NCBI GenBank assembly: GCA_018816335.1
Contig: JAHIVP010000013.1
Span: 19,226-83,225 of the forward strand
Direction: 5' to 3'
Origin: Nanobdellota archaeon
Lineage (GTDB): Archaea; Nanobdellota; Nanobdellia; Pacearchaeales; GW2011-AR1
Length of the DNA stretch: 64,000 nt
Shown here: one piece after another, positions 15,151 through 64,000 of the stretch
Position numbering within the stretch: position 1 is the first letter of the stretch
How the letters are laid out: each line of letters starts with the position of its first letter
Notes under the pieces: generated by a model
The model's input: only the letters and a program-made list of their open reading frames with translations
What the model was told of the DNA's origin: nothing
The model's database searches: none
Position numbers and translations under genes: made by a program

Positions 15151-15152
15151 AA

Positions 15153-46153: not shown

Positions 46154-46850
46154 TGTATTAATGCCTATGTTTAATGAACAAGACATAGTAGAAAATACAA
46201 AAGTTGTTGAGGACGAAATAAAAAAAACAGGATTAGACTATGAGATTATTATAGTAGATGATTGTTCAACTAATGACTGTTATTCTAAAGCAAGAAGCAT
46301 ACCTTCTAAAAAAGTTAAGGTCATAACTTACAAACCAAATAATGGGAAAGGATATGCTTTAATGCACGGATTTAAACACTCAACAGGAGATTATGTTATG
46401 TTTATTGACTCTGATTTAGATTTACATCCACGAACAATTCATAATTTTTTAGAATATCTCCCAAAATATGATATTGTTATAGGAAGTAAAAGACACCCAG
46501 AATCTAAAGTCCACTATCCAATAGCAAGAAAAATATTAAGCAGAGCAACACAACTAGCTGTCAAAACCCTCTTCAACCTAAATGTTAAAGACACTCAAGT
46601 AGGCTTAAAATTATTCAAAAGAGAAGTATTAGAAAAAGTTGTCCCAAAAATTTTAGTAAAAAGATGGGCATTTGATCTAGAACTTTTAGTAGTTGCGAAC
46701 AAAGAAAAATACAAAATAATCGAGCGCCCTATTGAACTAAATTTCAAATTTTCTTCAACAATAAAACCTCAGACAATTTTCTACAGCTTTCTAGATATGC
46801 TCGCTATATTTTATAGACTTAAAATATTGAGATATTATGATCAACAATGA
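46143..46850 (+). CDS. GT2 glycosyltransferase (DPM1-like polyprenyl-phosphate sugar synthase)
   Basis: VLMPMFNE...IIIVDDCS...FIDSDLD (DxD). Confidence 0.7.
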   Translation: MKISVLMPMFNEQDIVENTKVVEDEIKKTGLDYEIIIVDDCSTNDCYSKARSIPSKKVKVITYKPNNGKGYALMHGFKHSTGDYVMFIDSDLDLHPRTIHNFLEYLPKYDIVIGSKRHPESKVHYPIARKILSRATQLAVKTLFNLNVKDTQVGLKLFKREVLEKVVPKILVKRWAFDLELLVVANKEKYKIIERPIELNFKFSSTIKPQTIFYSFLDMLAIFYRLKILRYYDQQ

Positions 46851-47860: not shown

Positions 47861-49279
47861 ATGAAAGTTGTATTATTAAGCCCTCCACAAAATGACAAGA
47901 TGTTTCCATCTTTAGGAATTGCATATATTGGAGCAGTTCTTAAAAAATCTGGACATGATATCCTGATTATAGACGGAGCAGGAATTTCTCTTAAAGAAAT
48001 GATTGCCTCTATTAAAGATTATCATCCAGATATCGCAGGAATAACAATGAACACAACAAATAGATTTGATGTTCTAGAGTTAGCTAAACAAATCAAATCA
48101 AATCTAAAAATTCCAATTATTCTTGGAGGGCCACACCCAACTTTACTTCCAGACCAACTTCTAAAGAACTATAAATATATTGATTTTATTGTTAGGAATG
48201 AGGGAGAATACTCAACTTTAGAATTAGTTAATTCTCTAGAAAAAAAGAAAACATTCTCTAACATTAAAGGTATTTCATATAGAGATAACAATAAAGTAAT
48301 ACATAATCCTCCAGCAGAACCAATATTAGACTTAGATAAACTTCCATTTCCAGACTGGAGTTTTTTCAATTTGAAAAAATATTCAAAACAAGTAGAATAT
48401 CCAGAGAAATACAAAAAATATCCTGTGGGAAGTGTTATTAGCTCAAGAGGGTGTCCTTTTAGATGTACTTTTTGTTCTTCAAGCCAATTTTGGGGACATA
48501 AAAATAGATTAAGATCTCCAGAAAATATTATCGGAGAAATAAAAATGTTATATGGTTTAGGAATAAGATTTATTGTTTTTAATGATGATAACTTTTCATC
48601 AAATACAAAAAGAGCAATACAGATATGTAAATTAATGATAAAAGAAGGACTTTCTGAAAAAATGGGTTGGCAATGTAGAGCAGAAGTAAATGTTATGAAT
48701 GAAGAATTAATAAAATGGATGAAAAAAGCTAACTGTAACATGATTGAGTTTGGAATAGAAGATTGCACACAAGAAGGATTAAAATGGTTCAAAAAAAGCC
48801 ATACTCAGCAACAAGTTGACAAAGCATTTGATTTATGTAGAAAATATAAAATAAAAACAAAAAGTTATTTTATTGTTGGAGGAGATCACGAGACAAAAGA
48901 AAACATTAAAAGAAAAAAGAAATATATAGAAAATTTAAATCCTGATATTACTACAGCATCAATTCTTCTAGCATACCCAGGAACAGAAGTTTATGATCTA
49001 GGAAAAAATCAAAAATTATTTGATGAGTCTGTATGGTTAGATAATTGTGTAGGTGAAAAATTCCATAGTCGAGCACCAATATATACAGGCCCACACTTAA
49101 GTTACTCTGAATTAATTTCTGCATCTGCAGATATCAATTATTGGTGGGGAAGAAAAAAAGGACAATATGGGATAAAAGATAATATAAAAATTGCAGTAGA
49201 TATGTTAAAACAAGGAGATATCAATAAATTATTTAGAATGAGTCTTGCAGTTATAAAACAAAAACTTTCTTTCAAATGA
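47861..49279 (+). CDS. B12-binding-domain radical SAM enzyme (class B)
   Basis: N-terminal Rossmann/B12-like domain. CxxxCxxC box RGCPFRCTFCSS. Confidence 0.75.
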   Translation: MKVVLLSPPQNDKMFPSLGIAYIGAVLKKSGHDILIIDGAGISLKEMIASIKDYHPDIAGITMNTTNRFDVLELAKQIKSNLKIPIILGGPHPTLLPDQLLKNYKYIDFIVRNEGEYSTLELVNSLEKKKTFSNIKGISYRDNNKVIHNPPAEPILDLDKLPFPDWSFFNLKKYSKQVEYPEKYKKYPVGSVISSRGCPFRCTFCSSSQFWGHKNRLRSPENIIGEIKMLYGLGIRFIVFNDDNFSSNTKRAIQICKLMIKEGLSEKMGWQCRAEVNVMNEELIKWMKKANCNMIEFGIEDCTQEGLKWFKKSHTQQQVDKAFDLCRKYKIKTKSYFIVGGDHETKENIKRKKKYIENLNPDITTASILLAYPGTEVYDLGKNQKLFDESVWLDNCVGEKFHSRAPIYTGPHLSYSELISASADINYWWGRKKGQYGIKDNIKIAVDMLKQGDINKLFRMSLAVIKQKLSFK

Positions 49280-50211
49280 AACTCTCTATAATCCTCCCCA
49301 CCTACAACAATGAAAAAACAATAGAAGAATGTCTAAATTCTATTTTCTCTCAAAAATTCCCTAAACAAGATTTTGAAGTTTTATTTTTAGACGGAGGTTC
49401 AACAGATAACACATTAAAAATTGCAAAAACATTTCCAGTAAAAATAATAAATAATCCTAAAAGAAATGAAGAAGCAGCAAGAATTTTAGGAATAAAAAAA
49501 TCAAAAGGTGAAATATTAGCTTTTATCGACGCTGATAATATTTTAGTTGGAAATGATTGGTTTAAAAAAATGCTTCAACCTTTCAAAGAAAAAGATATAG
49601 CATTTGCAGACACTTTATATTATTCTTTTAGAAAATCAGATAAACTTGGGGTGAGATATCAAGCTCTAATCGGGGGAGATGACCCAATTGTTTCTTATTT
49701 AGGCTTTTATTCAAGATGGAATTACCATAAAAATAACTGGACAGATTTTCCTTATGAAAACCAAGATAAAGGAGATTATCTAAAAATCTCACTTTCAAAC
49801 AAAGAAAAAGTTCCAGCAATGGGTTCTAATGGTTTTTTAGTAAGAACATCAATAGCAAAAAAATTTATAAAAGACACATTCATACACTCAGACTTTGTCT
49901 ATGATTTAATAAACAACAACCACAATTGTTTTGCTAAAGTTAAAACAGGAATTATTCACAATCAACCCAAATTCTTCTCAAACAAAATTAGAAGAATGCA
50001 AAGAAGACAAACAAAAGAAATTAAAATAAAATATAATTACAATATCAAAAAATCAAAAACTCTCTTAACAGCTATATACATATTACTAATTATTCCTTTA
50101 ATTATTGATACAATTGTTGGTTATATAAGAAAAAAAGATTCTGCATGGCTCTTCCACACTCCAGCAACATTAATATTATTTTTTATGTATCTTTATTATA
50201 GTGTTAGATAA
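49276..50211 (+). CDS. GT2 glycosyltransferase
   Basis: LSIILPTYNNEKTIEECL...FIDADN. Confidence 0.7.
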   Translation: MKLSIILPTYNNEKTIEECLNSIFSQKFPKQDFEVLFLDGGSTDNTLKIAKTFPVKIINNPKRNEEAARILGIKKSKGEILAFIDADNILVGNDWFKKMLQPFKEKDIAFADTLYYSFRKSDKLGVRYQALIGGDDPIVSYLGFYSRWNYHKNNWTDFPYENQDKGDYLKISLSNKEKVPAMGSNGFLVRTSIAKKFIKDTFIHSDFVYDLINNNHNCFAKVKTGIIHNQPKFFSNKIRRMQRRQTKEIKIKYNYNIKKSKTLLTAIYILLIIPLIIDTIVGYIRKKDSAWLFHTPATLILFFMYLYYSVR

Positions 50212-50737
50212 CTTTCAACTTCAACTCAATCTCTCCAACAGGAAAAATCCAACAAAGAAATCTCTCATACATCATCTTAGGGATAATATTATAAAACCAA
50301 CTACAAGTTGTATTAGCAATTGCATGCTCAACACTCAAAAAATTATATCTCCTCTTAACTATCTTCAAATTAAGTTTTTCTCCCATATATCCATTAATTA
50401 AATGCTCAAATGTAAACCATCCAAAAAATCTCTTATGAGTAGGATCATTATAACCAATACCATTTGAAAAATGAGGAACTCTTATATGAATAATCCCTCC
50501 CTTCTTTGTAACTCTAACTAACTCTTTCAATGTCTTCATCAAATCTTCAACATGTTCAAGAATATGTGAACAATAAACTAAATCAAATTCTTCTTTCTTA
50601 AAAGGATAAGGAAATTTATCTAAATTATGTTTAACATCAACCTTATAATCAGAATTAAAATCTAAATTAACCCAATCCACACTCTCACTTGATTTCTTAT
50701 AATCTTTACCACTACCAATATTTAAGAATTTTTTCAT
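50204..50737 (-). CDS. class I SAM-dependent methyltransferase (Methyltransf_11-like)
   Basis: LNIGSGKD glycine-rich SAM motif and CSHILEHVED. Confidence 0.65.
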   Translation of the reverse strand: MKKFLNIGSGKDYKKSSESVDWVNLDFNSDYKVDVKHNLDKFPYPFKKEEFDLVYCSHILEHVEDLMKTLKELVRVTKKGGIIHIRVPHFSNGIGYNDPTHKRFFGWFTFEHLINGYMGEKLNLKIVKRRYNFLSVEHAIANTTCSWFYNIIPKMMYERFLCWIFPVGEIELKLKVI

Positions 50738-50739
50738 TA

Positions 50740-52587
50740 TTACTCAGGAAATTTATATATTATTAATAACGGACTTCCAACCTGTCCATACATTGCAGCT
50801 TGTTCAGGAGTTACAGCCCAAACCTGAACAACAGTTAGATTATGTTTCTCAGGATAACTATAAGCCCACACAGGAGTAAAATGAGGTTCAAATACAGATA
50901 AAATCATATATTGTGGTTTCAATCCTTCAACTTTTTTCTCAAACAAATCAGTCATCCCTGAAATACAACTATCATTATAAATAAAACCTGTATCTCTATC
51001 AGTACAGATAGTCAAAAATGGATCCTTCACAAAATAATCATAACTCTGTCTCTCTGAATAATACTGGTTCTGCACTATAGAAGCAGTCATAATTTTATCA
51101 TCAGGATTAGAATTCATCTTCAACCACTCCCCTCCAAGCTTAATCTCATTATAAGTTAACTTTTTCATTTCTGTTAGTTGTATACTATGATTATAATTCT
51201 CATAAACTCCTCCAAAAATCAAAACTAACAAAACTCCAATTGCAATTATCTCACTATATTTTTTTAATATATCATATAACCCAATAACTCCTTTAGCAGC
51301 AATATAAAAAAGAGGAGGCATTAACATCAACAACCATCTATCATTAGCTGCTCTGAATATCACAACATAAAAAATCAAGTGAACTAAAAGAAGCAACACA
51401 ACAAAAAAGTCAGCATTCAATCTTTTACTTTTTTGTTTCCATAAAACATCTAATCCTAAAACCAATGGAATTAAAGTTATCAATCCTAAAACCAAAGCAA
51501 TCAACCAATAATTATGTAAAAAACTCGTCAACATCGGAACAATATACCAAGCAATAGGTTGATGAACAGAATAAGCTTCCTCTCCAAAATAAAACCTAAT
51601 AAACTCAAACCTTGAAGAAATCATAAATATCAAATAAGGAATAATAGAGATAATAAAAACTACAACCCCTTTCCAAATTGTTTTATCTTTAAACAAAGCC
51701 AACTTTCTTGTAAACAACAAATAAATAGCTATTGTTATCAAAACCAAAGCCAAAGCAAATCTTGCTGAAAAAGCCAATACTCCAAAAACTATAGATAAGT
51801 ATAATCCATAGTTTTTATTTTTTTTAATATAATAACTCCAAAAAAACAACAAAGACAACATCCCAAAAAACACAGACGGAATATCAGTCAAAAGTCTAAA
51901 AGAATAAAAAAACCAAACCCAATAAAAAGACATCATAATAGAAGCTATTAATCCAACTCTTTTATCATACAAATTTCTTCCTAAAGCATAAACCAAATAA
52001 GTTGTAACAATTCCAGGAATTAGTAATGTAAAAAATCTAATTGTAAGTTCTCCAAATCCAAATTTGAAAAAACCAGCCCATATAATTGGCATTAACAAAG
52101 GTCTCATCCCAGTAAAATGACCCCACCACTCAGGAGTTGCCTGCCCAATTGCCCAAACTTTGGAAATTGCTAAATAATCCCCTTCATCCCACCATATTGG
52201 CTGCACCCCCAACCTAAAAAAATAATAAACTCTGATTATAATCACAAAAGCCATCAACAAAATCAATATCAAACTATACTTATTTTTCAAAAGAGCTTTA
52301 ATTCTATCCTCAATCTTCACCTCTCCTCTTTTATCACCTACAAAATCCTCAGGTTGATCGCGCGTAGGCGCGTCTTGGGATTCATGGCTTCTCTTTAGAG
52401 TAGACATGCTCGGGGACTTTGTCTCCGTTGTTTTGGCGCCGGAAACCTCTGGTTTACGAGCGTTTATTATCTCTTCTGTTTCAGAACTTTCTTTCTTTTC
52501 ATTAACTACTTCTTCTTTTGTTTCAGTTCTTTCATTATTAATTGATTCTTCTACTACTTTTTCAGAATCAGAACCCTCATTTTCCAT
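50740..52587 (-). CDS. GT-C fold glycosyltransferase (ArnT/PMT-like) with an acidic low-complexity N-terminal tail of about 95 aa
   Basis: Polytopic membrane protein. WWDEGDY loop motif after the first TM helix. Confidence 0.5.
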   Translation of the reverse strand: MENEGSDSEKVVEESINNERTETKEEVVNEKKESSETEEIINARKPEVSGAKTTETKSPSMSTLKRSHESQDAPTRDQPEDFVGDKRGEVKIEDRIKALLKNKYSLILILLMAFVIIIRVYYFFRLGVQPIWWDEGDYLAISKVWAIGQATPEWWGHFTGMRPLLMPIIWAGFFKFGFGELTIRFFTLLIPGIVTTYLVYALGRNLYDKRVGLIASIMMSFYWVWFFYSFRLLTDIPSVFFGMLSLLFFWSYYIKKNKNYGLYLSIVFGVLAFSARFALALVLITIAIYLLFTRKLALFKDKTIWKGVVVFIISIIPYLIFMISSRFEFIRFYFGEEAYSVHQPIAWYIVPMLTSFLHNYWLIALVLGLITLIPLVLGLDVLWKQKSKRLNADFFVVLLLLVHLIFYVVIFRAANDRWLLMLMPPLFYIAAKGVIGLYDILKKYSEIIAIGVLLVLIFGGVYENYNHSIQLTEMKKLTYNEIKLGGEWLKMNSNPDDKIMTASIVQNQYYSERQSYDYFVKDPFLTICTDRDTGFIYNDSCISGMTDLFEKKVEGLKPQYMILSVFEPHFTPVWAYSYPEKHNLTVVQVWAVTPEQAAMYGQVGSPLLIIYKFPE

Positions 52588-52626
52588 AATAAATAATTAT
52601 TTAAACTATATATAAACATATTCATT

Positions 52627-54129
52627 ATGACACAAAAACCAAAAATTTTATTAATAAATCCACCATTATCAGGAAGTTTAACCTCTGGAATCTTCACAGT
52701 AAAAGTTCCACTAGGTTTAGCTTACATTGCTTCTTATTTAGAAAAACACAACTTCAAACCAGAAATATTAGATTGTATGGCTTATTATGAAAACATAAAA
52801 AAATTATCAAAAAACAATTACAGAATCGGACTTTCTGAAAAAGAGATAATAAAAAAATTAAAACAATTTAATCCAGATATTGTAGGAGTTTCAGGATCAT
52901 ACACAATCCATGAAAAAGACTCATTTGCAATTGCAGACCTAGTTAAAAAACACACAAAAGCTTTAGTAGTTTTTGGAGGAGCACACACTTCAGCAATTCC
53001 ACACTCAGTTCTAAAAAACAAAAATGTAGATATAGCAGTAATTGGAGAAGGAGAATTAACATTCTTAGATATAGTAAAAAATCACAAAACCAAAAAATTA
53101 TACAATCTCAAAGGAATTGCTTTTAGAAAACAAAAATCCATCAAAATAAATCCAATAAAAGAATATATTGAAAATCTTGATGACCTTCCATTTCCAGCAC
53201 ATCATTTGCTTCCAATGGAAAAATACCTCAAACATCCTCAAAACTCTTTTGCAAATATGAGGGGTCCTACTACAGAAATAATAACATCTAGGGGATGTCC
53301 ATATAATTGCATATTTTGTTCAATTCACACTGTCTGGGGAAAAAAATGGAGAGCTCGTTCAGCTAAAAATGTTGTAGACGAATTAGAACACCTTCACAAA
53401 AAATACAAAATAAAAGAATTTAGATTTTTTGATGATAATCTTACTTGGAAAAAAGATAGAATAATGGAGATTTGTAATGAGATAATTCAAAGAAAACTAA
53501 AAATAAAATGGGACACTCCAAACGGAGTTGCAATTGCAACACTAGATGAGGAAGTTCTCAAAAAAATGAAACAAGCTGGATATTACAAAATTGTTATGGG
53601 AATAGAATCAGGCTCAGAACAAACACTAAGATTCATGAGAAAACCAGTCATGCTAAAAAAAGCTAGAGAAATAATAAAAATATGTAACAAACTTGGAATC
53701 TGGACATGGTCAACCTTTGTTATAGGATTCCCTGATGAATCTATAAAAGAAATTCAAAAAACAATTGATTTCTCAAAAAACTCAGGATTAAATTTTGCAA
53801 CTTTTTATATTGCCCAACCTTATGAAGGAACAGATATGTATGATGTTTACAAGAAAAAAGGATTACTAAAAGACGGACTATCAAACCAAAGTTCAGTAAC
53901 AAACTCAAAATATGACACAAACCATTTTACTGCAGAACAATTAGCAAAAATACAAAAAAATGCATATTCAGGATTCATTAAACATCGTATGATTTCTTAT
54001 CTAAATCCAATAAAACTCTATAAAGAATTTCTAAACAGAATCAAATCTTTCGAAGATTTATATTATGTTTTAAGAATGTTTAAGAATTTAGTTGGGAAGG
54101 AGTACTCTCCTATTTATCAAAAAGACTAA
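52627..54129 (+). CDS. B12-binding-domain radical SAM enzyme
   Basis: TSRGCPYNCIFCS box. Paralog of 47861, 60136 and 63199. Confidence 0.75.
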   Translation: MTQKPKILLINPPLSGSLTSGIFTVKVPLGLAYIASYLEKHNFKPEILDCMAYYENIKKLSKNNYRIGLSEKEIIKKLKQFNPDIVGVSGSYTIHEKDSFAIADLVKKHTKALVVFGGAHTSAIPHSVLKNKNVDIAVIGEGELTFLDIVKNHKTKKLYNLKGIAFRKQKSIKINPIKEYIENLDDLPFPAHHLLPMEKYLKHPQNSFANMRGPTTEIITSRGCPYNCIFCSIHTVWGKKWRARSAKNVVDELEHLHKKYKIKEFRFFDDNLTWKKDRIMEICNEIIQRKLKIKWDTPNGVAIATLDEEVLKKMKQAGYYKIVMGIESGSEQTLRFMRKPVMLKKAREIIKICNKLGIWTWSTFVIGFPDESIKEIQKTIDFSKNSGLNFATFYIAQPYEGTDMYDVYKKKGLLKDGLSNQSSVTNSKYDTNHFTAEQLAKIQKNAYSGFIKHRMISYLNPIKLYKEFLNRIKSFEDLYYVLRMFKNLVGKEYSPIYQKD

Positions 54130-55020
54130 TCACTTAGTACTCTCAATCCTAGTCCATATATCTTCAAACTTCCAAGTATTCTTATTAATATCCTTAAATA
54201 TCCTATACCATAAATAAATCCTAGCAAACACAAGCCCAATTGTCCAAAAAATCTCTTTCAAACTCCTAGGAAATCTCAAAACAAAAAATATTCCTTTAGA
54301 TTCCTTGCTCACAGACCTATCAACTTCTTGCTTAAAAATATACTTTATCTGATTATATCCTCCAGCACTTCTTCTCTTCTGAGAAATCCAATCTTTGAAA
54401 ATAGTAGGATACTTCACATTAACAATTGCTTCAGGCTCATAAATTACTTTATACTTTTTATTATAAATCATATAAGAAATCAAAGCATCATCTGACAATG
54501 TATCTTTAGGAATTTCTTTCACAACTCCAGCTCTTATTGAATATAAATATCCAGAACAAGCCATAACCCCTTTCTCATGATTCAGCCTCTGTTTATGAAC
54601 AGCACTAGTCAACAAATGAGCCCAATACCCAAACTTATTATTCCTTGAATTAGTAGGAATCGGATGCCCACAAACAGCTCCAACTTTTTTATCTTCAAAT
54701 CTCTTCAAAAATAAATTAACACAACCATCATTAACAAAAACATCTCCATCACTTAATATCAAAATCTCTCCTTTAACTTCCTTAAAAATCATATTCAAAG
54801 CAATCGGTTTTCCTTTTCCAGGATCTTTAAAATACTTAATCTGTTTATATTTTTTCTGATACTTCCTAATCACTTCTCTAGTTTCTTCATCAGGACAAGC
54901 AGCAATCAATTCATAAGGAACTTTAATATCTTGCTTAACAAAACTCTCAATTGCCTTTCCAATTGTCTTTGGTTCTTTCCATGCAGTTATTATAATGCTC
55001 AACTTTAATTTAGCCATCAA
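54130..55020 (-). CDS. GT2 glycosyltransferase
   Basis: LSIIITAWKE...LSDGDVF. Confidence 0.65.
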   Translation of the reverse strand: MMAKLKLSIIITAWKEPKTIGKAIESFVKQDIKVPYELIAACPDEETREVIRKYQKKYKQIKYFKDPGKGKPIALNMIFKEVKGEILILSDGDVFVNDGCVNLFLKRFEDKKVGAVCGHPIPTNSRNNKFGYWAHLLTSAVHKQRLNHEKGVMACSGYLYSIRAGVVKEIPKDTLSDDALISYMIYNKKYKVIYEPEAIVNVKYPTIFKDWISQKRRSAGGYNQIKYIFKQEVDRSVSKESKGIFFVLRFPRSLKEIFWTIGLVFARIYLWYRIFKDINKNTWKFEDIWTRIESTK

Positions 55021-56122
55021 TAATCTTCTCCAAATCTTTAATTAAAATACTCCACTTAAATCTCTCAGCAAATTTTCTTGTATCTTTCTGAATTTTCTCA
55101 ATTATTTTAATATTATTCTTATCTAAAACATATTCAAGTTTTGATTTTAAATCTTTATAATCATCTAACTCAAACAAAAAACCATTCTTACCATTTTTTA
55201 TTATATCAACTGCTCCTTTTGTTTTACTAGCAATTACAATCTTTCCTAAAGCCATTGTTTCAATCAAAGCTTGAGGCATAGCCTCTCTTTTGCTAGGCAA
55301 AACAAAAACATCTGCTTCCTGAATCTTTTTAATTTTCTTTTTCAAATCATACACAGGATCATTAAAATTTATATTTTTAGCATCTAATTTTTTTACTAAT
55401 TCTTTTAATTCTTCTAAATAATCTTCTTCTGCAGGACCTACAATATCTAAATTTATATCTTTGATTTCAGAAATAGCTTTAATTAAAACTTCTAGATTTT
55501 TTATTGGAGCTATTCTTCCTAAAAATAAAACTTTTTTTCCTCTAAACTTTTTCACTTGTTCCTTGAAAAACTCATCAGGAATTCCATTTGGAATATAAAC
55601 AATTTTTTCTTCAGGACATCTGAGTTCTAACAAATAAGGTTTTTCCCAATAAGTGATAGCAATAACTTTATCATATTTACTAAAATTTTTCTTAAACATC
55701 AAATCATATAACTTAACTCCTAACTCTAACTTTTTACTTCTCAACCCTTTTTCCACAAATGGAGCATGAGTAACTAAATAACACTTAGCTCCGTGTTTCT
55801 TAGCCAAATCTAATCCTTGATTTGTATGAGGATGCCTATAAACATGAACAATAACAATATCTGGCTTTAACTCTGCAAACTCTTTTTTAAAATTCCAAAA
55901 ATGTGCATTCTCTCCAACAGACAATTTAACAGGAAATCTTCTAATCTTCACCCCTTCCCACTCATCTTTATCAGGAACCTTTTTATTACTCCCTTTTTCA
56001 ATATCTGAAGAAAACACATAAACTTCATGCCCTGCTTTTTTTAACAATCTAGCCTCAGAAAAAACCCTTGTCCAAACTCCACAAACTCCTGCAGAATACG
56101 GACATATCTCTAAAATCTTCAT
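55010..56122 (-). CDS. GT4 (glycosyltransferase group 1) enzyme
   Basis: C-terminal EAMPQALIETMALGKIVIASK (E-x7-E). Confidence 0.75.
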   Translation of the reverse strand: MKILEICPYSAGVCGVWTRVFSEARLLKKAGHEVYVFSSDIEKGSNKKVPDKDEWEGVKIRRFPVKLSVGENAHFWNFKKEFAELKPDIVIVHVYRHPHTNQGLDLAKKHGAKCYLVTHAPFVEKGLRSKKLELGVKLYDLMFKKNFSKYDKVIAITYWEKPYLLELRCPEEKIVYIPNGIPDEFFKEQVKKFRGKKVLFLGRIAPIKNLEVLIKAISEIKDINLDIVGPAEEDYLEELKELVKKLDAKNINFNDPVYDLKKKIKKIQEADVFVLPSKREAMPQALIETMALGKIVIASKTKGAVDIIKNGKNGFLFELDDYKDLKSKLEYVLDKNNIKIIEKIQKDTRKFAERFKWSILIKDLEKIIDG

Positions 56123-56171
56123 TTTATTCCAGTATCATTAATTTTATAAAACCCCTCCTGTTTTAAAGCTT

Positions 56172-57200
56172 ATGAATTTAAAATACCTCTTTAAAGAGTA
56201 TAAATACTACAAAAAATTAGGAGGGCTAAAAAATATATTTGTTAAATTTATATTTTCAAAAACTCCCTTAAAAAAAGTTGTCAATTCTTCTTTTTATAAT
56301 AAATATTATTCTAATATGATTAACAAAAAATCCAAGAAATCTAATACAAAATTCCTCCAAATTGAAAACACAAATCTTTGTAATGCAACCTGTGTTATGT
56401 GTCCTCATGTATCAATGAAAAGAAAAAAAACAACCATGTCTTTTGAAGACTTTAAAAAAATCACAAAAAATGTTATAGATCATGAAAAGATAAAAGTTGT
56501 GATAATAACTGGATTTGGTGAACCTTTCTTAGATAAAACAATAGTTGATAAAATAAAATGGTTAAATCAAAACTACCCAGATATTAAAATAGATATCTAT
56601 ACAAATGTCTCAATGTTAACTCCAAAAATAACAGACAAATTACTAGAACTGAAAATCCACAAAATAAATTTTTCAGTAAATGGAACAGAAAAGGTTTACA
56701 ATAAAATAATGGGTTTAGATTACGAAAAAACAAAAGAACATATAAATTATTTTTATGAACAAAAGAAAAAACTAAACAAAAAGTTCCCTCTAACAAACAT
56801 CTCTTTAATGATTATAAAAGACAACGAAGCAGAAATAAAAAAATTCATTAATTTTTGGAATAACAAATCAGATTCTATTATGGTTTATATTCCATCTGAT
56901 TGGGCAGGCAAAAAAAAGATTGATTATGTATCTGAAATTCCATTTAAGAAAAAAAGATGGCCATGTCCAGCTTTATGGCAATTTATAACCGTAGATGTGG
57001 AAGGAAATCTAATTATGTGTTGCAGAGATTATGAATCTATTATAAAATTTGGAAACCTTCTTAAAAATAATATTAAAGAAATTAAAAATTCAAATAAATT
57101 TAAAGACTTACAACAAAAACATCTTGACTTTAATTTTTCAACACCTGTATGTTCAACATGTGACAATGCTTATGATTCAAGTCTAAACTGGTTTAATTAA
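56172..57200 (+). CDS. radical SAM enzyme with a Cys-rich SPASM/twitch-like C-terminal domain
   Basis: CNATCVMCPH box. C-terminus CPALW...MCCRDY...CSTCDNAY. Confidence 0.7.
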   Translation: MNLKYLFKEYKYYKKLGGLKNIFVKFIFSKTPLKKVVNSSFYNKYYSNMINKKSKKSNTKFLQIENTNLCNATCVMCPHVSMKRKKTTMSFEDFKKITKNVIDHEKIKVVIITGFGEPFLDKTIVDKIKWLNQNYPDIKIDIYTNVSMLTPKITDKLLELKIHKINFSVNGTEKVYNKIMGLDYEKTKEHINYFYEQKKKLNKKFPLTNISLMIIKDNEAEIKKFINFWNNKSDSIMVYIPSDWAGKKKIDYVSEIPFKKKRWPCPALWQFITVDVEGNLIMCCRDYESIIKFGNLLKNNIKEIKNSNKFKDLQQKHLDFNFSTPVCSTCDNAYDSSLNWFN

Positions 57201-57344
57201 AATGAATAAAAAACTCCTAAACATATTATTTCTCATCTGGATTATCATAGTTTTCTTTTTCTTCTACAAACAAGAATTAATTCACAATATTGACCATCTT
57301 CCAACTTTTATAAAAAACATAATAAATAATCTTCCTTTTTTCAA

Positions 57345-59168
57345 ATGATAATTGAAATATTAATTACAATTTTAGTATTCTTTATAGCATTAATTTCAGG
57401 AAACAAAATATTTAGGCTATTCAAACTTCAGGTTTCCTTCAACGAAGAACTAATTTATTCATTAGCTCTTGGGTTTGCTTTTCTAAGCTATTTAATATTA
57501 TTTTTTGGATTATTAGGATTAATCTACAAATCAGTTTTCATTATCATATTCTTTACCTTATTTATCATCTCTATCCCTGAACTAAAAAATCTCAAGAGAA
57601 AATTCAAACTTGACATTAATTTTTCTTACTTATGTATCCCAATAATAATATTTTTACTATTAATTTTAATTGGCTCTTTATCACCTCCAACAGGATGGGA
57701 CACTCAAAAATATCATCTTTCAGCTCAAGAAGCTTATGTTAATCAAAACAAAATATCCTATGTTCCAATACTCCATTCAGACCTACCGTCTCTAGCTAAC
57801 ATGTTTATATTATTAGGAGTATTATTAAAAAATGATATCCTTGCTAAATTAATATTTTATTCAGTATTTCTTGTTTTAGTATTTTCCGTTTACATATTTA
57901 CAAAAAAACATTTTTCAGAAAAAATAGCATCTCTTGCTACTATAATATTCCTCACATTCCCAATGATAATTTATTATGCAGGAACAGTTCACACAGATAT
58001 GTTTTTATCTCTTTTTACTTTTTTATCTATTATAACATTTTTTTACTGGGCTCACCCAGAAACCCTCAAACAAGATAATAAATATTTAATTCTTTCAGCT
58101 ATATTTGCAGGTTTAGCATTTTCAACAAAAATAACAGCAATACTCACTTTGTTAGCTTTTGCAATAATTTTCTTAATTCATTTAATTTTCAAACCCAACA
58201 AAATTAAAACTATAAAATTCACACTTATCTTTTTCTTAATTGTAGCTTTAATTGTTTCTCCTTGGTTTATTAAATCATATATCTTTACAGGAAATCCTAT
58301 CTACCCTATTGCTTACAATATTTTTGGAGGACCTCAAAATCTAACTTATGCAACAGAATTTACAAACACTCAGTTAGCAACAGGAGGATATGGCACAAAC
58401 CTATTAACATACATTTTATCTCCATGGCACATAAATTCAAATGGTTATAGATTTCTTAGTTCATTTTCTTTAATCCCTTTACTCTTAGCATTTCTACCTC
58501 TTCTCTTTTTCATCAGAAACAAAAATTCAATAATAAAATTCTTACTAATCTTCTCATTCATTTATTTCACAATCTGGTTTTTTCTTCATCCTTTTCTAAT
58601 GAAGCTCATTCCAATTATTGCTCCTTTATCAATAATCTTAGCATACACAATAATCTCTGTTTTTGAAAGAAAAACAATTTCAAAATTCTTCACAATCTTC
58701 ATAATTTTTACAATCTTATTCTCTTTTTTAATGGCAGGTTTAATTTACAAACCACAAATAAAAGTTGCTCTTGGTTTACAATCAAAACAAAATTATTTAT
58801 CAAATAATGTTGATGTCTATAACACTTTCAATTATGCAAACAACAATCTCAATCCAAATTCAAAAATATTGTTAATCGGTGAAGAGAGAAACTATTATCT
58901 TGACATTCCATTTCAAGATGGAGACCCAACAAGACAAGGATTAATTGATTATAGATCTACAGATCAACTCAACCTTAAAATTTTCATAAACAAAGAACAA
59001 ATAACTCACTTAATTGTAAATAAAAACTTTTTTTCAAACATCTCAGATGATAAAATTGGTTTATATGGGTATACAGAATATTCTTATGATTTAATTACAA
59101 CATATATAGAAGAGAATACCAAAGAAGTTTATGAATCAAATAATATTTTTCTTTATGAATTAAATTAA
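57345..59168 (+). CDS. polytopic membrane protein, putative GT-C glycosyltransferase
   Basis: More than twelve TM helices with an architecture parallel to 50740..52587. No definitive motif. Confidence 0.4.
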   Translation: MIIEILITILVFFIALISGNKIFRLFKLQVSFNEELIYSLALGFAFLSYLILFFGLLGLIYKSVFIIIFFTLFIISIPELKNLKRKFKLDINFSYLCIPIIIFLLLILIGSLSPPTGWDTQKYHLSAQEAYVNQNKISYVPILHSDLPSLANMFILLGVLLKNDILAKLIFYSVFLVLVFSVYIFTKKHFSEKIASLATIIFLTFPMIIYYAGTVHTDMFLSLFTFLSIITFFYWAHPETLKQDNKYLILSAIFAGLAFSTKITAILTLLAFAIIFLIHLIFKPNKIKTIKFTLIFFLIVALIVSPWFIKSYIFTGNPIYPIAYNIFGGPQNLTYATEFTNTQLATGGYGTNLLTYILSPWHINSNGYRFLSSFSLIPLLLAFLPLLFFIRNKNSIIKFLLIFSFIYFTIWFFLHPFLMKLIPIIAPLSIILAYTIISVFERKTISKFFTIFIIFTILFSFLMAGLIYKPQIKVALGLQSKQNYLSNNVDVYNTFNYANNNLNPNSKILLIGEERNYYLDIPFQDGDPTRQGLIDYRSTDQLNLKIFINKEQITHLIVNKNFFSNISDDKIGLYGYTEYSYDLITTYIEENTKEVYESNNIFLYELN

Positions 59169-60146
59169 TCACTCAAACCTTGGAGTTATATACTCACTAG
59201 AATATTCATTACAATTCCTACAAATCAACGGAAATATCTTCTTATTATGCATCTCTCTCCATCTTTTGCTCATCCTACTATTCCAAATTTTTTTCAGGGA
59301 AGTTTTATTTGCATCTCCTAAAACCATCTTTCCCTCATAATCAACACAACACGGAACAACTTTTCCATCCCATAGGACAATTATATTTCCTCTCCACAAT
59401 TCTTTACATCTACTATTTCTCTTTCTAGGTGTAAATGAAATATTCGGCTGTATCTGAATTCTATCAACAACATCTTTCCACTTTTTATAAAACTGAGGAA
59501 CATGCTTTTCTGTCTCAGGCATTATAACCATATTAATATCAATCTTTGTTTTAATCTTCAATTCATTTCTTAGCTCAATTAATCTCATAATTCTCTTTTC
59601 AATTATTTTATAATCAAAACCTCTAATCTTTGTATATGAATCTTCAAAACCATCTAAAGATATTGTTATCCTTTCAATCTTCGCATTCAAGAGTTTCTTC
59701 ATCTTTTTATCATTAGTTAATAAAACAGCATTTGTAGTAAGAAAAGTTCTAATTCCTTTTTTATTAGCATAATCCAACATATCATATATTTTTGGATGTA
59801 ACAACGGCTCTCCCCAATTAAACATCAAAGCAAACTCCATCTTAGGATTCTCATCAACAATCTTCTTAAATAACTCATATTTCATAAAACCCTTCTTCCT
59901 CTTCATCCCATTATTTACAGGACACATTTTACAACTCAGATTACAATTATTTGTAACCTCAAACTGAACACTTGTAACTTTTGGAGAATAAGTTGAATTA
60001 CACATATAAAAAAATTGATTCAGGCCAACATCATAAATACTTTTAAAAGTTGGATATCGTGTTTTAATAAACTCTTTCTGCTCTGGCTTTTTCAAATACT
60101 TATTTGCTGCAAAATCATATATCCATTCTTTAATTTTATTTGACAT
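59169..60146 (-). CDS. radical SAM enzyme with a SPASM/twitch-like C-terminus
   Basis: CNLSCKMCPV box. C-terminus CKELW...PCCVDY...CRNCN. Confidence 0.7.
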   Translation of the reverse strand: MSNKIKEWIYDFAANKYLKKPEQKEFIKTRYPTFKSIYDVGLNQFFYMCNSTYSPKVTSVQFEVTNNCNLSCKMCPVNNGMKRKKGFMKYELFKKIVDENPKMEFALMFNWGEPLLHPKIYDMLDYANKKGIRTFLTTNAVLLTNDKKMKKLLNAKIERITISLDGFEDSYTKIRGFDYKIIEKRIMRLIELRNELKIKTKIDINMVIMPETEKHVPQFYKKWKDVVDRIQIQPNISFTPRKRNSRCKELWRGNIIVLWDGKVVPCCVDYEGKMVLGDANKTSLKKIWNSRMSKRWREMHNKKIFPLICRNCNEYSSEYITPRFE

Positions 60147-61596
60147 TTTTTTTATTTGATTTTAATTCCCTATCCATTGTTATCCCAAAAAATCTTTTTA
60201 TATAATGTTTTGGATTATCACGAATTTTTTCAATTATTTTTTTCAGAAAAAACATTTTCCCTTGCGCAAGTATAGATTTTATTATTATTTTATTCGACAT
60301 TTTTACTAACCATTTCTCAGAATGTTCTGCTGTAAAAAAAGGACAAGGATTATCACTTAACCAATAATCATCATCTATTACTCCTTTTTCAACAGCAAAT
60401 TTATAAACTTCTGTTCCAGGAAAAACCCATAAAGGAGCAGCATAAAAAAATTTCATTTTTCTTATTTTTTGTAATTGCCTTATAAAATCAATGGTTTCAT
60501 TAACTGTCTCTTCTGTTTCTCCAGGAAAACCCACAATTATAAATTTTTCAATTTGTATCTTTTTAAATTCTTTAAATATCTTGAAAGTTTCAATACAATC
60601 TTCTTTTGTTATGCTTTTATGAATAGATTTTAATAGTTTTTTACTGCCAGTTTCTATCCCAAAATAAATTTCACTAAATCCTACTTTTTCCATCCAATAA
60701 ACCATTTCTCTTGAAATAGGTTTTATTCTTCCTTGGCCAAAAAAATTTAATTTAATTCCTCTTTTGATTATTTCTTTACATATATTTATCACTCTTTGGT
60801 TATCTAATGTGAAATTGTCATCTAAAAATTGAATATGAGTTACCCAAGGATATTTTTTTGATATATATTCTATTTCATCTACTACTTTTTTATAATTTCT
60901 AGGTCTCCAACGTCTTCTACTAACAATATTCAAACAACAAAAAGAACATCTGTTTGGGCATCCTCTTGATGTGAGAATTTGAACTTTTTTAATAGCTGGT
61001 TTCATAAAAACATCATAACTTGGATAAGGATATTTATCTATGTCTTGAACTAACTCTCTTTGTTTAGTAAGAATAACTTCATTCTTTTTATCTCTATAAG
61101 CAATTCCTTTTATCTCTTTAAGGGATTTTTTATTTATCAACGCATCAAGAAGTTCGATTATACTTTCTTCAGATTCTCCAATACAAATTGCATCAATTGG
61201 AAAATTCTCTAATAACTGTTTATACATCACACTTGAATGTATTCCTCCAAGAAGAATTTTAATATTTTTATCTAAACTTTTTATAAGTTTTATTGCCTTA
61301 TAAGTTGAAATTCTTGTCATAGTCATTACTGTAATCCCCACAAAATCAGGCTTAAATCTTTCAATTTCTTTTTTAATTTCTTTTAAACAATTTTCTTCTT
61401 TCCAAGTTGTATAATCTTTTGTAATTACCCCATAATTCTCTTTTTTTAGTATAGCATCTAAATAAAGAAGCCCCATTGGAAATTGTTCTTCATTAGATTC
61501 GTTTGATAAACTCCGTGTTTTATTTTGTTCTTCAACAGAAGTCTCAAATAAAAAAATCTTTGCTTTTTTGTTAGATGTATCTATTTTCATTTTCAT
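60136..61596 (-). CDS. B12-binding-domain radical SAM enzyme
   Basis: TSRGCPNRCSFCC box. Confidence 0.75.
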   Translation of the reverse strand: MKMKIDTSNKKAKIFLFETSVEEQNKTRSLSNESNEEQFPMGLLYLDAILKKENYGVITKDYTTWKEENCLKEIKKEIERFKPDFVGITVMTMTRISTYKAIKLIKSLDKNIKILLGGIHSSVMYKQLLENFPIDAICIGESEESIIELLDALINKKSLKEIKGIAYRDKKNEVILTKQRELVQDIDKYPYPSYDVFMKPAIKKVQILTSRGCPNRCSFCCLNIVSRRRWRPRNYKKVVDEIEYISKKYPWVTHIQFLDDNFTLDNQRVINICKEIIKRGIKLNFFGQGRIKPISREMVYWMEKVGFSEIYFGIETGSKKLLKSIHKSITKEDCIETFKIFKEFKKIQIEKFIIVGFPGETEETVNETIDFIRQLQKIRKMKFFYAAPLWVFPGTEVYKFAVEKGVIDDDYWLSDNPCPFFTAEHSEKWLVKMSNKIIIKSILAQGKMFFLKKIIEKIRDNPKHYIKRFFGITMDRELKSNKKNVK

Positions 61597-61626
61597 AATG
61601 TTAAATAAATTAAGGCTTTATAAGTT

Positions 61627-63198
61627 TTATTTCACTCTACTTTTTAATTTTCTACCTAAAGATCTGATGATTTCTAAATCTCTTTTGTCAAATCCTTTGA
61701 ATATAAATATCAAAATGATATACAATAAAATAAAAAAGATAAATAGACTTATTATTGAAAGAATATTTACAATGATAAATTGTTTAAAATATAAAACAAG
61801 AGCTATTGGAATTAAAGAACATAATAAAATTGTTATCATCTTTCTTTTTAGAGGAACTATTGAAAGATAATACATTACTTGAAATAATAAAAGTAAATTA
61901 AAAACTATTATTGATATTGATGTTGCTATTGCAGCCCCAGTGATACCTAAACTATTATCTAAAAAAAAGATTGTTGGTAGAGGGATAAGAATAATATTTA
62001 ATATAATATTTAATATTGCCGCAAATACTATATCAAACAAAATTAATTTTGATTTTCCAATCATGAGTATTAAAGCATTCGCTACACTAAATACAGAAGT
62101 AAAAATAAATCCTATTGCAAGTATTCTAAGCGCTGGAGCAGCAACAAGGTACATATCCCCAAAAAGAAAATTAATAGCTACCTCAGGAAAAATAAAAATT
62201 AATATAAATATAGGTAAATTAATTGTAAATATCCATTTTACAACTTGTTTACTTAAATCTCTCACCATTTTAATATCTTTCTCACCATATTTTCTATTAA
62301 TTATTGGTGAAAAAAGTTGAAGAAACAAAGCATGAACAATTGTTAATAACGAAGCAATTGGAACTGCAGCATTATAAAATCCTACCTCTCTTGCTGTTTT
62401 AAAATATGCTATTAAAAAAGAATCTACTCCATAAAAAACAAATGCAAGTATCCCAAAAAATAATAATGGTAAAGAGTAATCTAATAATTTTTTATTTAAA
62501 CTCTTTTTCTCTTCTTTTGGCAATTTTGATTTTCCTAAAATTTCAGGAAGTTTATATTTACAAAAAAGATATGACAACAAAAAAGTCGTAAAAATACCTA
62601 AAAAATAAGCTAAAGCAATTCCTTTAATTTGTAAACCTAATGAGATAAAAAGAATCAAAAACAAGAGTTTTACTGTATTCTCAGCAAAATTTAGAATACC
62701 TATATACTCTTTTATTTTTTCATGAGCTTTTATAGTTGCCAAAAATGTATTCCCAAAAATTGATAAAGGAAGAACAAAACTAAAAACTCTTAAAAACAAA
62801 ACTAATTTTGGTTCATGAAAAATATTTATTGAAATGAACTCTGAGAATGAAAACAAAAATACAGCAAAGAAAATACTTGAAAATAAAAATAATGTTGTTG
62901 TAAATTTAAATACCTGTTTTATTTTTTCTTTGTTTTTTTCTCCTCTGTAAATTGGTATAAATCTTAAAATACCTTCAATTAAACCTAGAGTAGAAAAGGC
63001 AATAAACCATTGGAGAATCATTATTCCTAATAAAAAAACCCCATAAATTTCAGGCCCATAATATCTTGCTATTATAATCCTAAACGCATAAGTAACTACT
63101 TTTGAGAAAATCAATCCAAAAAGAACAATCATAGAAGTTTTTGCTAAAAGCCTTAGGATAATATTAAACTCTTTTTCTTCTTTTATTTTTTCATTCAT
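61627..63198 (-). CDS. Wzx-like flippase (MOP superfamily)
   Basis: Fourteen TM helices. Confidence 0.6.
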   Translation of the reverse strand: MNEKIKEEKEFNIILRLLAKTSMIVLFGLIFSKVVTYAFRIIIARYYGPEIYGVFLLGIMILQWFIAFSTLGLIEGILRFIPIYRGEKNKEKIKQVFKFTTTLFLFSSIFFAVFLFSFSEFISINIFHEPKLVLFLRVFSFVLPLSIFGNTFLATIKAHEKIKEYIGILNFAENTVKLLFLILFISLGLQIKGIALAYFLGIFTTFLLSYLFCKYKLPEILGKSKLPKEEKKSLNKKLLDYSLPLLFFGILAFVFYGVDSFLIAYFKTAREVGFYNAAVPIASLLTIVHALFLQLFSPIINRKYGEKDIKMVRDLSKQVVKWIFTINLPIFILIFIFPEVAINFLFGDMYLVAAPALRILAIGFIFTSVFSVANALILMIGKSKLILFDIVFAAILNIILNIILIPLPTIFFLDNSLGITGAAIATSISIIVFNLLLLFQVMYYLSIVPLKRKMITILLCSLIPIALVLYFKQFIIVNILSIISLFIFFILLYIILIFIFKGFDKRDLEIIRSLGRKLKSRVK

Positions 63199-64000
63199 CT
63201 ATTTGGATACAAACAAAGAGTACCAAACTCTCTTAGCTATAAATTTAATTTGCTCAAATGAATTTATATCTTTCAACATCCCCCACAAAATCTTTGGCCT
63301 CAAATAAAAACCCAAAAAAGCTTTTCTCTGAAGTTTCTTCATTTCTTTCGCAGTCAATCCCTCAGGAACATACCCAACTTTATAAAAAATAAAATTATCA
63401 TAATCAAGCTCTTCTAATTTTCCTTCCTCAATCAACTTATTTGTTATCTCTGTATTTGGATATGTTTTAAACATACTAAACTGCGCTTTTTTCAAAGGAA
63501 TTTTCTTAGAAAATTTGATTGTTTTCAATATATCTTCTCTTGTCTCAGTTGGATATCCAATAATAAAAAATCCATTTGCATTCAAACCACACTCTTTAAT
63601 TAACTTAGTCTTCTCTTCAATAATCTTTGTTGTCAAACTTTTCTTCATATCTTTCAAAATCTTATCACTTCCAGATTCAATCCCAACATTAAAATCTTGT
63701 AAACCTGCTTTTTTCATCTTCAACAAAATTTCTTTATCTAATGTATCTAATCTTATACCATTCGGAAACGTAAACTTAATATTCATTTTTTGTTTAATCA
63801 ATTCATCACAAAACTCATGAACCCTTGCTTTATTTGTAGTAAAAGCATCATCAATTATGTGAATTTCATCTACTCCAAACTCATCTTTTAACAATTTCAT
63901 CTCATCAATTACATGTTTAACACTTCTATATCTAATTCTTCTTCCACTCATAATATGAACAGTACAATATGTACACTGAAACGGACAACCTCTTGAAGTT
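63199..64000 (-). CDS. B12-binding-domain radical SAM enzyme, N-terminal part beyond the window end
   Basis: The ORF-track start at 63951 is internal. The frame continues upstream to the window edge, encoding TSRGCPFQCTYCTVHIM(SGRR...). Confidence 0.7.
   Translation of the reverse strand, partial: TSRGCPFQCTYCTVHIMSGRRIRYRSVKHVIDEMKLLKDEFGVDEIHIIDDAFTTNKARVHEFCDELIKQKMNIKFTFPNGIRLDTLDKEILLKMKKAGLQDFNVGIESGSDKILKDMKKSLTTKIIEEKTKLIKECGLNANGFFIIGYPTETREDILKTIKFSKKIPLKKAQFSMFKTYPNTEITNKLIEEGKLEELDYDNFIFYKVGYVPEGLTAKEMKKLQRKAFLGFYLRPKILWGMLKDINSFEQIKFIAKRVWYSLFVSK

Follow-up and report, generated by a model that had tools for sequence, protein, structure and literature searches.

The Agl pathway of Haloferax volcanii is anchored on the oligosaccharyltransferase AglB and combines dolichyl-phosphate carriers with glycosyltransferases (GTs) of families GT2 and GT4, a Wzx-like flippase and an S-adenosylmethionine (SAM)-dependent methyltransferase. 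Its genes include AglB, AglJ/G/I/E, AglD, AglR, AglS and AglP, of which AglD, AglR and AglS follow the logic of a dolichyl-phosphate (Dol-P)-monosaccharide branch, with a Dol-P-sugar synthase and, facing outward, a Dol-P-sugar transferase for the final sugar. We know of no characterised agl pathway that contains a radical SAM (rSAM) enzyme. Here, we describe a locus of about 30 kb that resembles the Haloferax cluster in all of these components but in which one third of the genes encode rSAM proteins. It begins in the second half of a 64,000-nucleotide stretch (hereafter, the window) of contig JAHIVP010000013.1, assigned to a Nanobdellota archaeon. Judging from the domains and fold classes of the proteins and from the order, operon-like packing and conserved synteny of the genes, this is probably an AglB-anchored surface-glycan locus whose rSAM proteins would act as sugar-tailoring enzymes of the glycan pathway, a reading that we hold with moderate confidence; our confidence in any specific rSAM reaction is much lower. 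The scaffold is that of an ordinary AglB-type glycan locus, whereas the rSAM content is out of the ordinary.

Two further groups of described systems resemble parts of this locus. The tailoring enzymes of aminoglycosides and similar compounds comprise the class-B (B12-type) rSAM C-methylases GenK, GenD1 and Fms7, the diol dehydratase AprD4 and the twitch-type dehydrogenase BtrN, together with DesII and BlsE. They represent the same two enzyme classes as the window proteins and act on unactivated sugar or cyclitol carbons. By sequence or fold, AprD4, BtrN, DesII and BlsE rank with the nearest solved structures to the window rSAM proteins, and OxsB and AprD4 act on sugars. Together with the hopanoid enzyme HpnJ, the aminoglycoside enzymes are the closest analogues in function, although all of them belong to other biological settings. 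The aminoglycoside enzymes are only 14–20% identical to the window rSAM proteins and belong to the soluble secondary metabolism of actinomycetes, whereas the setting here is primary surface-glycan assembly, which involves lipid carriers, flippases and an oligosaccharyltransferase. The Arn (ArnC-ArnD-ArnE/F-ArnT) and Gtr/CsbB-YfhO systems are alike in combining a GT2-type polyprenyl-phosphate sugar synthase, tailoring of the lipid-linked monosaccharide, a flippase and a GT-C enzyme on the outside; in the Arn pathway, however, the tailoring enzyme is a deformylase, and no rSAM enzyme is known to us from either system.

The part of the locus that lies within the window consists of the following genes:
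40984–43860, plus strand: AglB/STT3 oligosaccharyltransferase of 958 amino acids (aa); Pfam STT3 at 56 bits and STT3-PglB_core, with WWDYGYW in the translation
43893–44915, plus strand: polyprenyl-phosphate N-acetylhexosamine-1-phosphate transferase (GPT) of the MraY/WecA family; Pfam Glycos_transf_4 at 113.6 bits
44915–46153, plus strand: Wzx-like flippase 1 (Wzx1); Pfam Polysacc_synt and Polysacc_synt_3
46143–46850, plus strand: GT2a, of the Dol-P-sugar synthase type; Pfam Glycos_transf_2
46847–47821, plus strand: GT2b, a membrane-anchored GT2; Pfam GT2 families
47861–49279, plus strand: B12_A, class-B rSAM with CPFRCTFC; PF02310 at 71.6 bits and PF04055 at 89.5 bits
49276–50211, plus strand: GT2c; Pfam Glycos_transf_2 at 103.7 bits
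50204–50737, minus strand: SAM-dependent methyltransferase, 177 aa; Pfam Methyltransf_11 and related families
50740–52587, minus strand: GT-C 1, PMT_2 family, 615 aa; Pfam PMT_2 at 59 bits, no match in a PDB sequence search
52627–54129, plus strand: B12_B, class-B rSAM with CPYNCIFC; PF02310 and PF04055 above cutoffs
54130–55020, minus strand: GT2d; Pfam Glyco_tranf_2_3 and GT2
55010–56122, minus strand: GT4-family glycosyltransferase; Pfam Glycos_transf_1 and Glyco_transf_4
56172–57200, plus strand: twitch-like rSAM 1 with CNATCVMC; Pfam Radical_SAM and SPASM (PF13186)
57202–57348, plus strand: conserved 48-aa open reading frame (ORF) with a single transmembrane (TM) segment ahead of GT-C 2; a homologous 51-aa ORF has the same position in the related locus L003
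57345–59168, plus strand: GT-C 2, PMT_2/PMT with DUF8201, 607 aa; Pfam PMT_2 and PMT
59169–60146, minus strand: twitch-like rSAM 2 with CNLSCKMC; Pfam Radical_SAM and SPASM (PF13186)
60136–61596, minus strand: B12_C, class-B rSAM with CPNRCSFC; PF02310 and PF04055 above cutoffs
61627–63198, minus strand: Wzx-like/MOP flippase 2 (Wzx2); Pfam Polysacc_synt and MatE
63199–64000, minus strand: B12_D, class-B rSAM with CPFQCTYC, C-terminal 267 codons; rSAM core cut by the window end, motif in the in-frame read-through

All features of an AglB locus are present, namely an STT3 protein with the WWDYG motif, an adjoining GPT, a flippase and GTs. The glycan-assembly genes proposed in an initial annotation of the window (AglB, GPT, two Wzx flippases, five GT2/GT4 enzymes, two GT-C enzymes and a methyltransferase) were all confirmed by Pfam at these positions, the five GTs being four GT2 and one GT4. 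Residues 1–214 of GT2a match best to the Dol-P-Man synthase of P. furiosus in the PDB (5mlz, E 1.6e-20), with ArnC and GtrB next. The 48-aa ORF overlaps the start of GT-C 2 (57345) by 4 nt and has its counterpart at positions 17835–17990 of L003, and it may encode a small subunit of that enzyme.

The window matches the ENA contig ERZ27247128 k141_943310 (162 kb), which is its parent contig and from which the locus L001 was taken. L001 is 100% identical to the window across 13,865 bp, and the independent Logan assembly L002 is identical across 9,538 bp. On the parent contig, the cluster runs about 7.6 kb past the window end and contains there:
the rest of B12_D (494 aa in total), the fifth B12-type rSAM B12_E (474 aa), a GT9, a GT2 and a second methyltransferase
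a small rSAM of 286 aa, the third in the cluster, and genes for an HD protein, a polysaccharide deacetylase and a CDP-alcohol phosphatidyltransferase-like protein

Hence, from AglB onward, 8 of 24 consecutive genes encode rSAM proteins, five of them B12-type and three small. The presence of the six rSAM proteins initially reported for one glycan cluster was confirmed, but this count was an underestimate once the parent contig is included.

All five B12-type proteins carry the CxxxCxxC motif (CPHKCTFC in B12_E) and match Pfam Radical_SAM with 63–95 bits (cutoff 29.5). The B12-binding domain PF02310 was found in B12_A, B12_B, B12_C and B12_E with 45–72 bits (cutoff 32.1); for B12_D, whose B12-binding domain is visible on L001 alone, the hit comes from the precomputed annotation of that locus. 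The ORF of B12_C has 486 aa, while the database gene (P0001) begins two codons later. At the level of sequence, we regard the membership of these five proteins in the class-B rSAM class as established. Four of them, at 47861, 52627, 60136 and 63199 (the last truncated), had been described as paralogous B12-binding proteins. They are present as described, but with pairwise identities of 29–33% among the five proteins, they are old paralogs and not the result of recent amplification.

The best NCBIfam matches of two of these proteins are BchE for B12_A (220 bits, cutoff 481) and the Sden_1168 P-methyltransferase family for B12_B (264 bits, cutoff 575); the equivalogs compared were BchE, HpnJ, HpnR, the Sden_1168/PhpK P-methyltransferases, the ladderane rSAM, MgmA, AprD4 and BzaD. 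B12_C, the one class-B protein that was modelled, yielded an AlphaFold2 (AF2) structure with a predicted local distance difference test score (pLDDT) of 89.5. Its top Foldseek matches were OxsB, TsrM, MgmA, CysS, AprD4 and TokK, with E values of 1e-18 to 5e-23 and query-based template modelling scores (TMq) of 0.62–0.70. PDB sequence searches agreed with these fold matches, with AprD4 among the top matches. Most characterised class-B enzymes are C-methyltransferases, and carbohydrates are among their substrates (PMC12931638, a 2026 review). Homologs of AprD4 and ArsL share the class-B sequence network yet bind no cobalamin, and their sequences offer no signature by which to set them apart (PMC12931638); because of this, a B12 Pfam domain alone does not imply cobalamin dependence.

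Among the homologs of B12_C, one protein (P0116) is fused to an FkbM-type methyltransferase (Methyltransf_21, PF05050) and another (P0117) to an ArsA-type ATPase domain (PF02374). In the related locus L003, an NTP_transferase domain is fused to a class-B rSAM; B12_B is 37% identical to the rSAM half of this fusion and is its closest relative among the window proteins. The fusions with NTP_transferase and Methyltransf_21 would fit nucleotide-activated or sugar substrates.

The two small rSAM proteins of the window are 31% identical to each other. They had been assigned SPASM/twitch C-termini, of which the SPASM match was confirmed in Pfam (PF13186, 41.6 and 54 bits, cutoff 21.5), while a full SPASM domain was not. 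Their C-termini follow the pattern C-x12/13-G-x4-CC...CxxC, with x12 spacing in rSAM 1. Across 20 members of the twitch-like rSAM 2 family, the rSAM motif cysteines C68, C72 and C75 are invariant, as are C247, C266, C309 and C312, and C267 is nearly invariant; the seven-cysteine motif for two auxiliary [4Fe-4S] clusters was not found across these members. The four invariant auxiliary cysteines point to a truncated, twitch-like SPASM domain that fits a single auxiliary cluster, presumably as in the twitch domain of BtrN. The AF2 model of rSAM 2 (pLDDT 92.5) matched BtrN best in Foldseek (E 1e-11, TMq 0.53); DesII, SuiB and BlsE came next, with peptide-modifying enzymes close behind. BtrN was also the top PDB sequence match (E 3e-12), in the N-terminal half alone. 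Of the four distinct folds that lie nearest, three thus belong to sugar- or cyclitol-modifying enzymes, with modest scores.

Several observations connect the rSAM genes to the glycan genes. GT2b, B12_A and GT2c are co-directional, with GT2c overlapping the stop codon of B12_A by 4 nt, and B12_D, Wzx2, B12_C and twitch-like rSAM 2 are packed closely together on the minus strand. The arrangement also recurs in another lineage. The loci L169 and L170 encode AglB proteins that are 48–49% identical to the window AglB and 78% identical to each other. In both, the order is kept from the ribosomal operon, SecY, EMC3, prefoldin, IF-2B and SpoIIM to AglB, GPT, Wzx1, GT2a, GT2b, a class-B-type rSAM and a GT2, so that comparison with related genomes bore out the AglB-GPT-Wzx1-GT2a-GT2b-[class-B rSAM]-GT2 arrangement. 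L169 and L003 are parts of one contig, joined within the GT-C1 gene, and L003 continues with GT-C1, GT2d, GT4, twitch1, the small ORF, GT-C2, twitch2, B12_D, Wzx2, B12_C, B12_E and GT9. This contig holds three further class-B rSAM genes, giving a total of 10 rSAM proteins (eight class-B-type and two twitch-type). The GT-C 2 ortholog in L003 scores 763 bits. Further orthologs were found as follows:
GT-C 1 in the L003/L169 contig and L166; GT4 in L003, L166 and L167; GT2d in L003
twitch-like rSAM 1 in L003, L010 and L167; B12_D in L003 and L005

The rSAM gene following GT2b is located at 16768–18219 in L169 and at 17051–18508 in L170. Its product has a weak B12-domain match and the non-canonical motif Cx4Cx2C (RDCWWGKCxFCSWP), and it is 82% identical between the two loci, slightly above AglB (78%). 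We had considered the rSAM after GT2b to be one orthologous gene, but rejected this since the L169/L170 protein belongs to another subfamily, with 28% identity to B12_A.

In each of the seven long loci from relatives (L003, L004, L005, L166, L167, L168 and L009), the B12_C ortholog stands among glycan genes. The neighbours of these orthologs encode Wzx, GT2/4/9/11, PMT_2, nucleoside diphosphate (NDP)-sugar epimerase/dehydratase, DegT aminotransferase, GFO_IDH oxidoreductase, acetyl- or carbamoyltransferase and methyltransferase. In seven loci (L001, L003, L004, L005, L010, L166 and L167), the Wzx2 ortholog lies no more than about 3 kb from that of B12_C. The association between rSAM and glycan genes is therefore beyond chance, given the packing, the synteny in another lineage and the context of the B12_C orthologs. 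The tight, often overlapping co-directional strings, the conserved slot and these contexts argue that the rSAM proteins belong functionally to the glycan locus.

Similar combinations occur in bacteria. In Falkowbacteria, of the candidate phyla radiation (CPR), one co-directional operon (L009, 2205–16636) includes three class-B rSAM genes and is a bacterial counterpart of the archaeal locus; its order is:
Wzx, methyltransferase, B12 rSAM, DegT, epimerase, GNAT, GT, B12_C homolog, carbamoyltransferase, GT11, B12 rSAM, GT2

In an Omnitrophota locus (L171), the neighbours of one member of the twitch-like rSAM 2 family are two B12 rSAMs, methyltransferases, GT2, YfhO, PMT_2 and DUF2079, and in an Aminicenantes locus (L172) another member lies beside a GT9. 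A set of PMT_2, GT2 and methyltransferase genes, to which the 177-aa methyltransferase of the window belongs, recurs across archaeal and bacterial loci. Since both this set and the B12_C-Wzx2 module also occur in bacteria that lack AglB, part of the locus may feed the GT-C enzymes or another glycoconjugate and not the N-glycan. The locus L004 (JGI Ga0209202_1000025) encodes a protein, P0029, that is labelled 'Candidatus Paceibacterota bacterium' at NCBI, yet the locus is collinear with L167, a locus on an archaeal contig that carries AglB, with proteins 30–76% identical. This conflict reflects either a taxonomic mislabel (Paceibacterota for Pacearchaeota) or cross-domain transfer. L004 was dropped as evidence for sharing with CPR because its label contradicts this collinearity, and the cross-domain claim rests on Falkowbacteria L009 and Omnitrophota L171.

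The rSAM repertoire of such loci is variable. The 42 class-B rSAM proteins from 14 loci fall into 25 groups at an identity of at least 40%, a level at which none of the 13 remaining loci in the sample contains an ortholog of B12_A or B12_B. Such variability is the pattern expected of surface-antigen diversification. Scans of genome and metagenome contigs with a B12_C alignment, which are a rough survey of rSAM arrays and not a synteny statistic, returned among the matches listed mostly generic class-B rSAM proteins with about 30% identity and a handful of orthologs. Also among the matches listed, uncultivated anaerobes often carry arrays of four to eight class-B rSAM paralogs in a stretch of about 20 kb; GT genes lie close to some of these arrays but not to others. 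Examples are L011, L016, L018, L019 and L020 in Bathyarchaeia, L021 and L040 in Omnitrophota, L038 in Kuenenia (presumed ladderane cluster) and L036 in Asgard archaea.

Substrates, timing and kinds of reaction are proposed as follows, and the use of cobalamin is likewise a proposal. GPT would prime dolichyl phosphate on the cytoplasmic face, and the GT2 and GT4 enzymes (and GT9) would lengthen the glycan, while GT2a, which resembles Dol-P-Man synthase, could supply Dol-P-monosaccharide donors. The likeness of GT2a to Dol-P-Man synthase, ArnC and GtrB suggests two branches, one yielding a Dol-PP-oligosaccharide (GPT, GTs, Wzx and AglB) and one a Dol-P-monosaccharide (GT2a, a flippase and GT-C). 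The five class-B rSAMs, the two or three twitch rSAMs and the SAM methyltransferases may alter unactivated carbons of nucleotide- or dolichol-linked sugars. The rSAM proteins of the locus have no signal peptides or membrane segments, which together with the need for reduced Fe-S clusters suggests that they act in the cytoplasm, before flipping. As Pfam scans of the cluster including its continuation on L001 yielded no NDP-sugar dehydratase, epimerase or aminotransferase, the rSAM proteins and methyltransferases are its sole visible tailoring functions, and on these grounds the class-B enzymes are proposed to functionalise unactivated sugar carbons. Their chemistry would most likely be C-methylation, the commonest precedent, or else deoxygenation or ring rearrangement, whereas the twitch enzymes might catalyse oxidation, epimerisation or deamination of sugar carbons. 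The two Wzx flippases would then export the lipid-linked products, AglB would move the oligosaccharide to asparagine, and the two PMT_2-type GT-C enzymes could add Dol-P-derived sugars outside the cell. Varying from genome to genome, the rSAM set may serve as a toolkit that diversifies the cell surface.

Several points weigh against this tailoring function. No rSAM of the cluster reaches any NCBIfam equivalog cutoff, the best class-B scores being 184–275 bits against cutoffs of 481–578. The fold matches are modest (TM 0.5–0.7) and include peptide-modifying SPASM enzymes. Non-methylating class-B members are indistinguishable by sequence (PMC12931638). The cluster has none of the NDP-sugar dehydratase, epimerase or aminotransferase genes that could point to its sugar precursors. 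Regarding gene context, the survey was small and seeded with B12_C and hence biased, and linkage to AglB was checked in one other lineage, represented by two contigs with mutually 78% identical AglBs. In that lineage, the slot after GT2b is conserved but its occupant differs (28% identity). Finally, the case is built on sequence, gene context and fold class.

Four other explanations were weighed against sugar tailoring. The rSAM proteins could make a substituent other than a sugar, for example a methylated phosphonate, an aminoalkyl group or a phospho-alcohol, that is nucleotide-activated and then attached to the glycan. In favour of this idea, L003 encodes in its positions 1–3573 a true phosphoenolpyruvate (PEP) mutase (TIGR02320, 346 bits, cutoff 319.55) fused to a nucleotidyltransferase, next to the NTP_transferase-rSAM fusion. 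We liken this arrangement to the Fom1/Fom3 layout of fosfomycin biosynthesis, presumably a cytidylyltransferase-PEP mutase and a class-B rSAM that methylates a CMP-activated phosphonate; in L003, however, the layout is embedded in a glycan locus and not in an antibiotic cluster. For the L003 organism, it suggests a (possibly methylated) phosphonate decoration of the glycan. In the locus described here, B12_B is the closest relative of the fusion rSAM and has a P-methyltransferase family as its best match, and the CDP-alcohol phosphatidyltransferase-like and HD-domain genes lie at the far end of the cluster. But the score of B12_B is far below the P-methyltransferase cutoff, the idea covers one or two of the eight rSAM proteins at best, and tblastn with the L003 PEP mutase found no counterpart of this enzyme or of the Fom1/Fom3-like layout in the window or L001. 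A phosphonate pathway was rejected for the window for this reason and kept for L003, and we consider the non-sugar substituent in general rather unlikely here. We also give a low probability to a modification of the lipid part, i.e. the dolichol carrier or membrane lipids, including a carbocyclic head group of the HpnJ/calditol type. HpnJ, which acts in hopanoid cyclitol-ether formation, probably rearranges a lipid-attached sugar, and HpnJ/BchE-like rSAMs are the best NCBIfam matches of B12_A, B12_C, B12_D and B12_E (130–275 bits against cutoffs of 481–578, with HpnJ at 275 bits for B12_E), with further sub-threshold matches to HpnR and the ladderane-lipid rSAM. The glycerol dialkyl glycerol tetraether (GDGT)-MAS enzyme is a partial match among the PDB hits of the twitch enzyme, and the Dol-P-sugar synthase-like GT2a and the GT-C enzymes would also be in keeping with lipid-linked chemistry. 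All of these scores are, however, far below the cutoffs, so that the proteins are not members of these families; twitch-like rSAM 2 reaches 49.9 bits against Tes (NF045702, cutoff 450), and at the family level none of the rSAM proteins groups with GDGT- or lipid-modifying enzymes in NCBIfam, which would have been an alternative to the annotation as glycan enzymes. There are no hopanoid or bacteriochlorophyll genes nearby, Pfam scans of the locus revealed no isoprenoid or lipid biosynthesis genes, and the same rSAM families occur in glycan operons of bacteria with unrelated lipids. The carbocyclic head group overlaps with sugar tailoring and does not replace it.

Class-B and SPASM rSAMs are typical tailoring enzymes of ribosomally synthesised and post-translationally modified peptides (RiPPs), so that the rSAM proteins could be peptide or protein maturases, RiPP-like or acting on glycoprotein targets, that are co-located by happenstance. 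The weak NCBIfam matches to ApyD and RiPP C-methyltransferases and the fold matches to SuiB, CteB, anSME and SkfB point in this direction. A RiPP cluster was nevertheless rejected due to the absence of a precursor ORF: no gap between genes exceeds about 150 bp, and the sole small conserved ORF encodes the hydrophobic 48-aa single-TM protein. Moreover, Pfam scans of the locus found no protease, RiPP recognition element (RRE) or ABC-exporter genes, and the twitch domain, like that of BtrN, would bind one auxiliary cluster, versus two in most peptide-modifying SPASM enzymes. We regard this explanation as very improbable. Co-location by chance or an assembly or binning artefact might be suspected for a metagenome-assembled contig whose 56–64 kb part has a slightly lower GC content, but two independent assemblies are identical across 9.5–13.9 kb, the synteny is kept in divergent genomes, and rSAM genes overlap with GT genes at their start and stop codons. 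Assembly identity and synteny effectively refute this possibility.

Sugar tailoring by the rSAM proteins would have no described equivalent in agl pathways. In a literature search, we found no paper that ties rSAM enzymes to AglB/agl pathways or to glycan loci of DPANN or CPR, and the arrangement is not annotated as a characterised agl pathway (Haloferax, Methanococcus, Sulfolobus), the database names being 'hypothetical protein' or 'radical SAM protein'.

The AglB protein is identical to the NCBI entry 'KKF56_01500 [Nanoarchaeota archaeon]', whose source is labelled a Nanoarchaeota archaeon metagenome-assembled genome, and its close relatives carry the NCBI labels Pacearchaeota or Nanoarchaeota. 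The GC content of the window is low (about 30%) and falls to 25–28% at 56000–64000, the variable rSAM-rich part. A drop in GC content is a frequent trait of variable surface-glycan loci. Upstream, the ribosomal-protein operon ends with SecY (36744–38144), followed by EMC3/YidC-like, prefoldin, IF-2B and SpoIIM-like genes and then AglB. Further upstream, the window contains:
13004–13825, plus strand: tyrosine recombinase (XerA/integrase family), near the following tRNA gene
15152–15237, minus strand: tRNA-Leu(AAG)
23599–23713, minus strand: stand-alone 5S rRNA gene
2269–3045, 3381–4055, 6025–6912 and 11203–12954: ORFs with no Pfam match

No cobalamin uptake or salvage genes were found among the 10 ORFs scanned upstream (window 1–24 kb). 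In the Aminicenantes locus L172, a TonB-dependent receptor and a BtuF/FecCD-type ABC uptake system (7234–11644) lie a few kb from the twitch-rSAM homolog and are a candidate cobalamin or siderophore importer.

The surface glycans of archaea and bacteria are usually diversified by nucleotide-sugar enzymes and glycosyltransferases. If the proposed function is true, radical C-H chemistry would join the repertoire of primary glycan biosynthesis, in an arrangement that a DPANN lineage retains beside AglB and that bacteria of CPR and Omnitrophota show in similar form. We tentatively raise the possibility that DPANN, CPR and Omnitrophota share a large, fast-diversifying toolkit of class-B and twitch rSAM enzymes that would rewrite sugars on polyprenyl carriers, while these are being assembled or afterwards, by C-methylation, deoxygenation, epimerisation or carbocycle formation. 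This could give rise to unseen types of cell-surface glycan, in genome-reduced symbionts whose coat may rely on scavenged cobalamin. Enzymologists would gain dozens of class-B subfamilies that await characterisation, with 25 groups in the 14 loci and a likely class of substrate defined for them. For symbiosis research, they lead to the hypotheses of a chemically unusual coat for attachment to the host, possibly dependent on host cobalamin.

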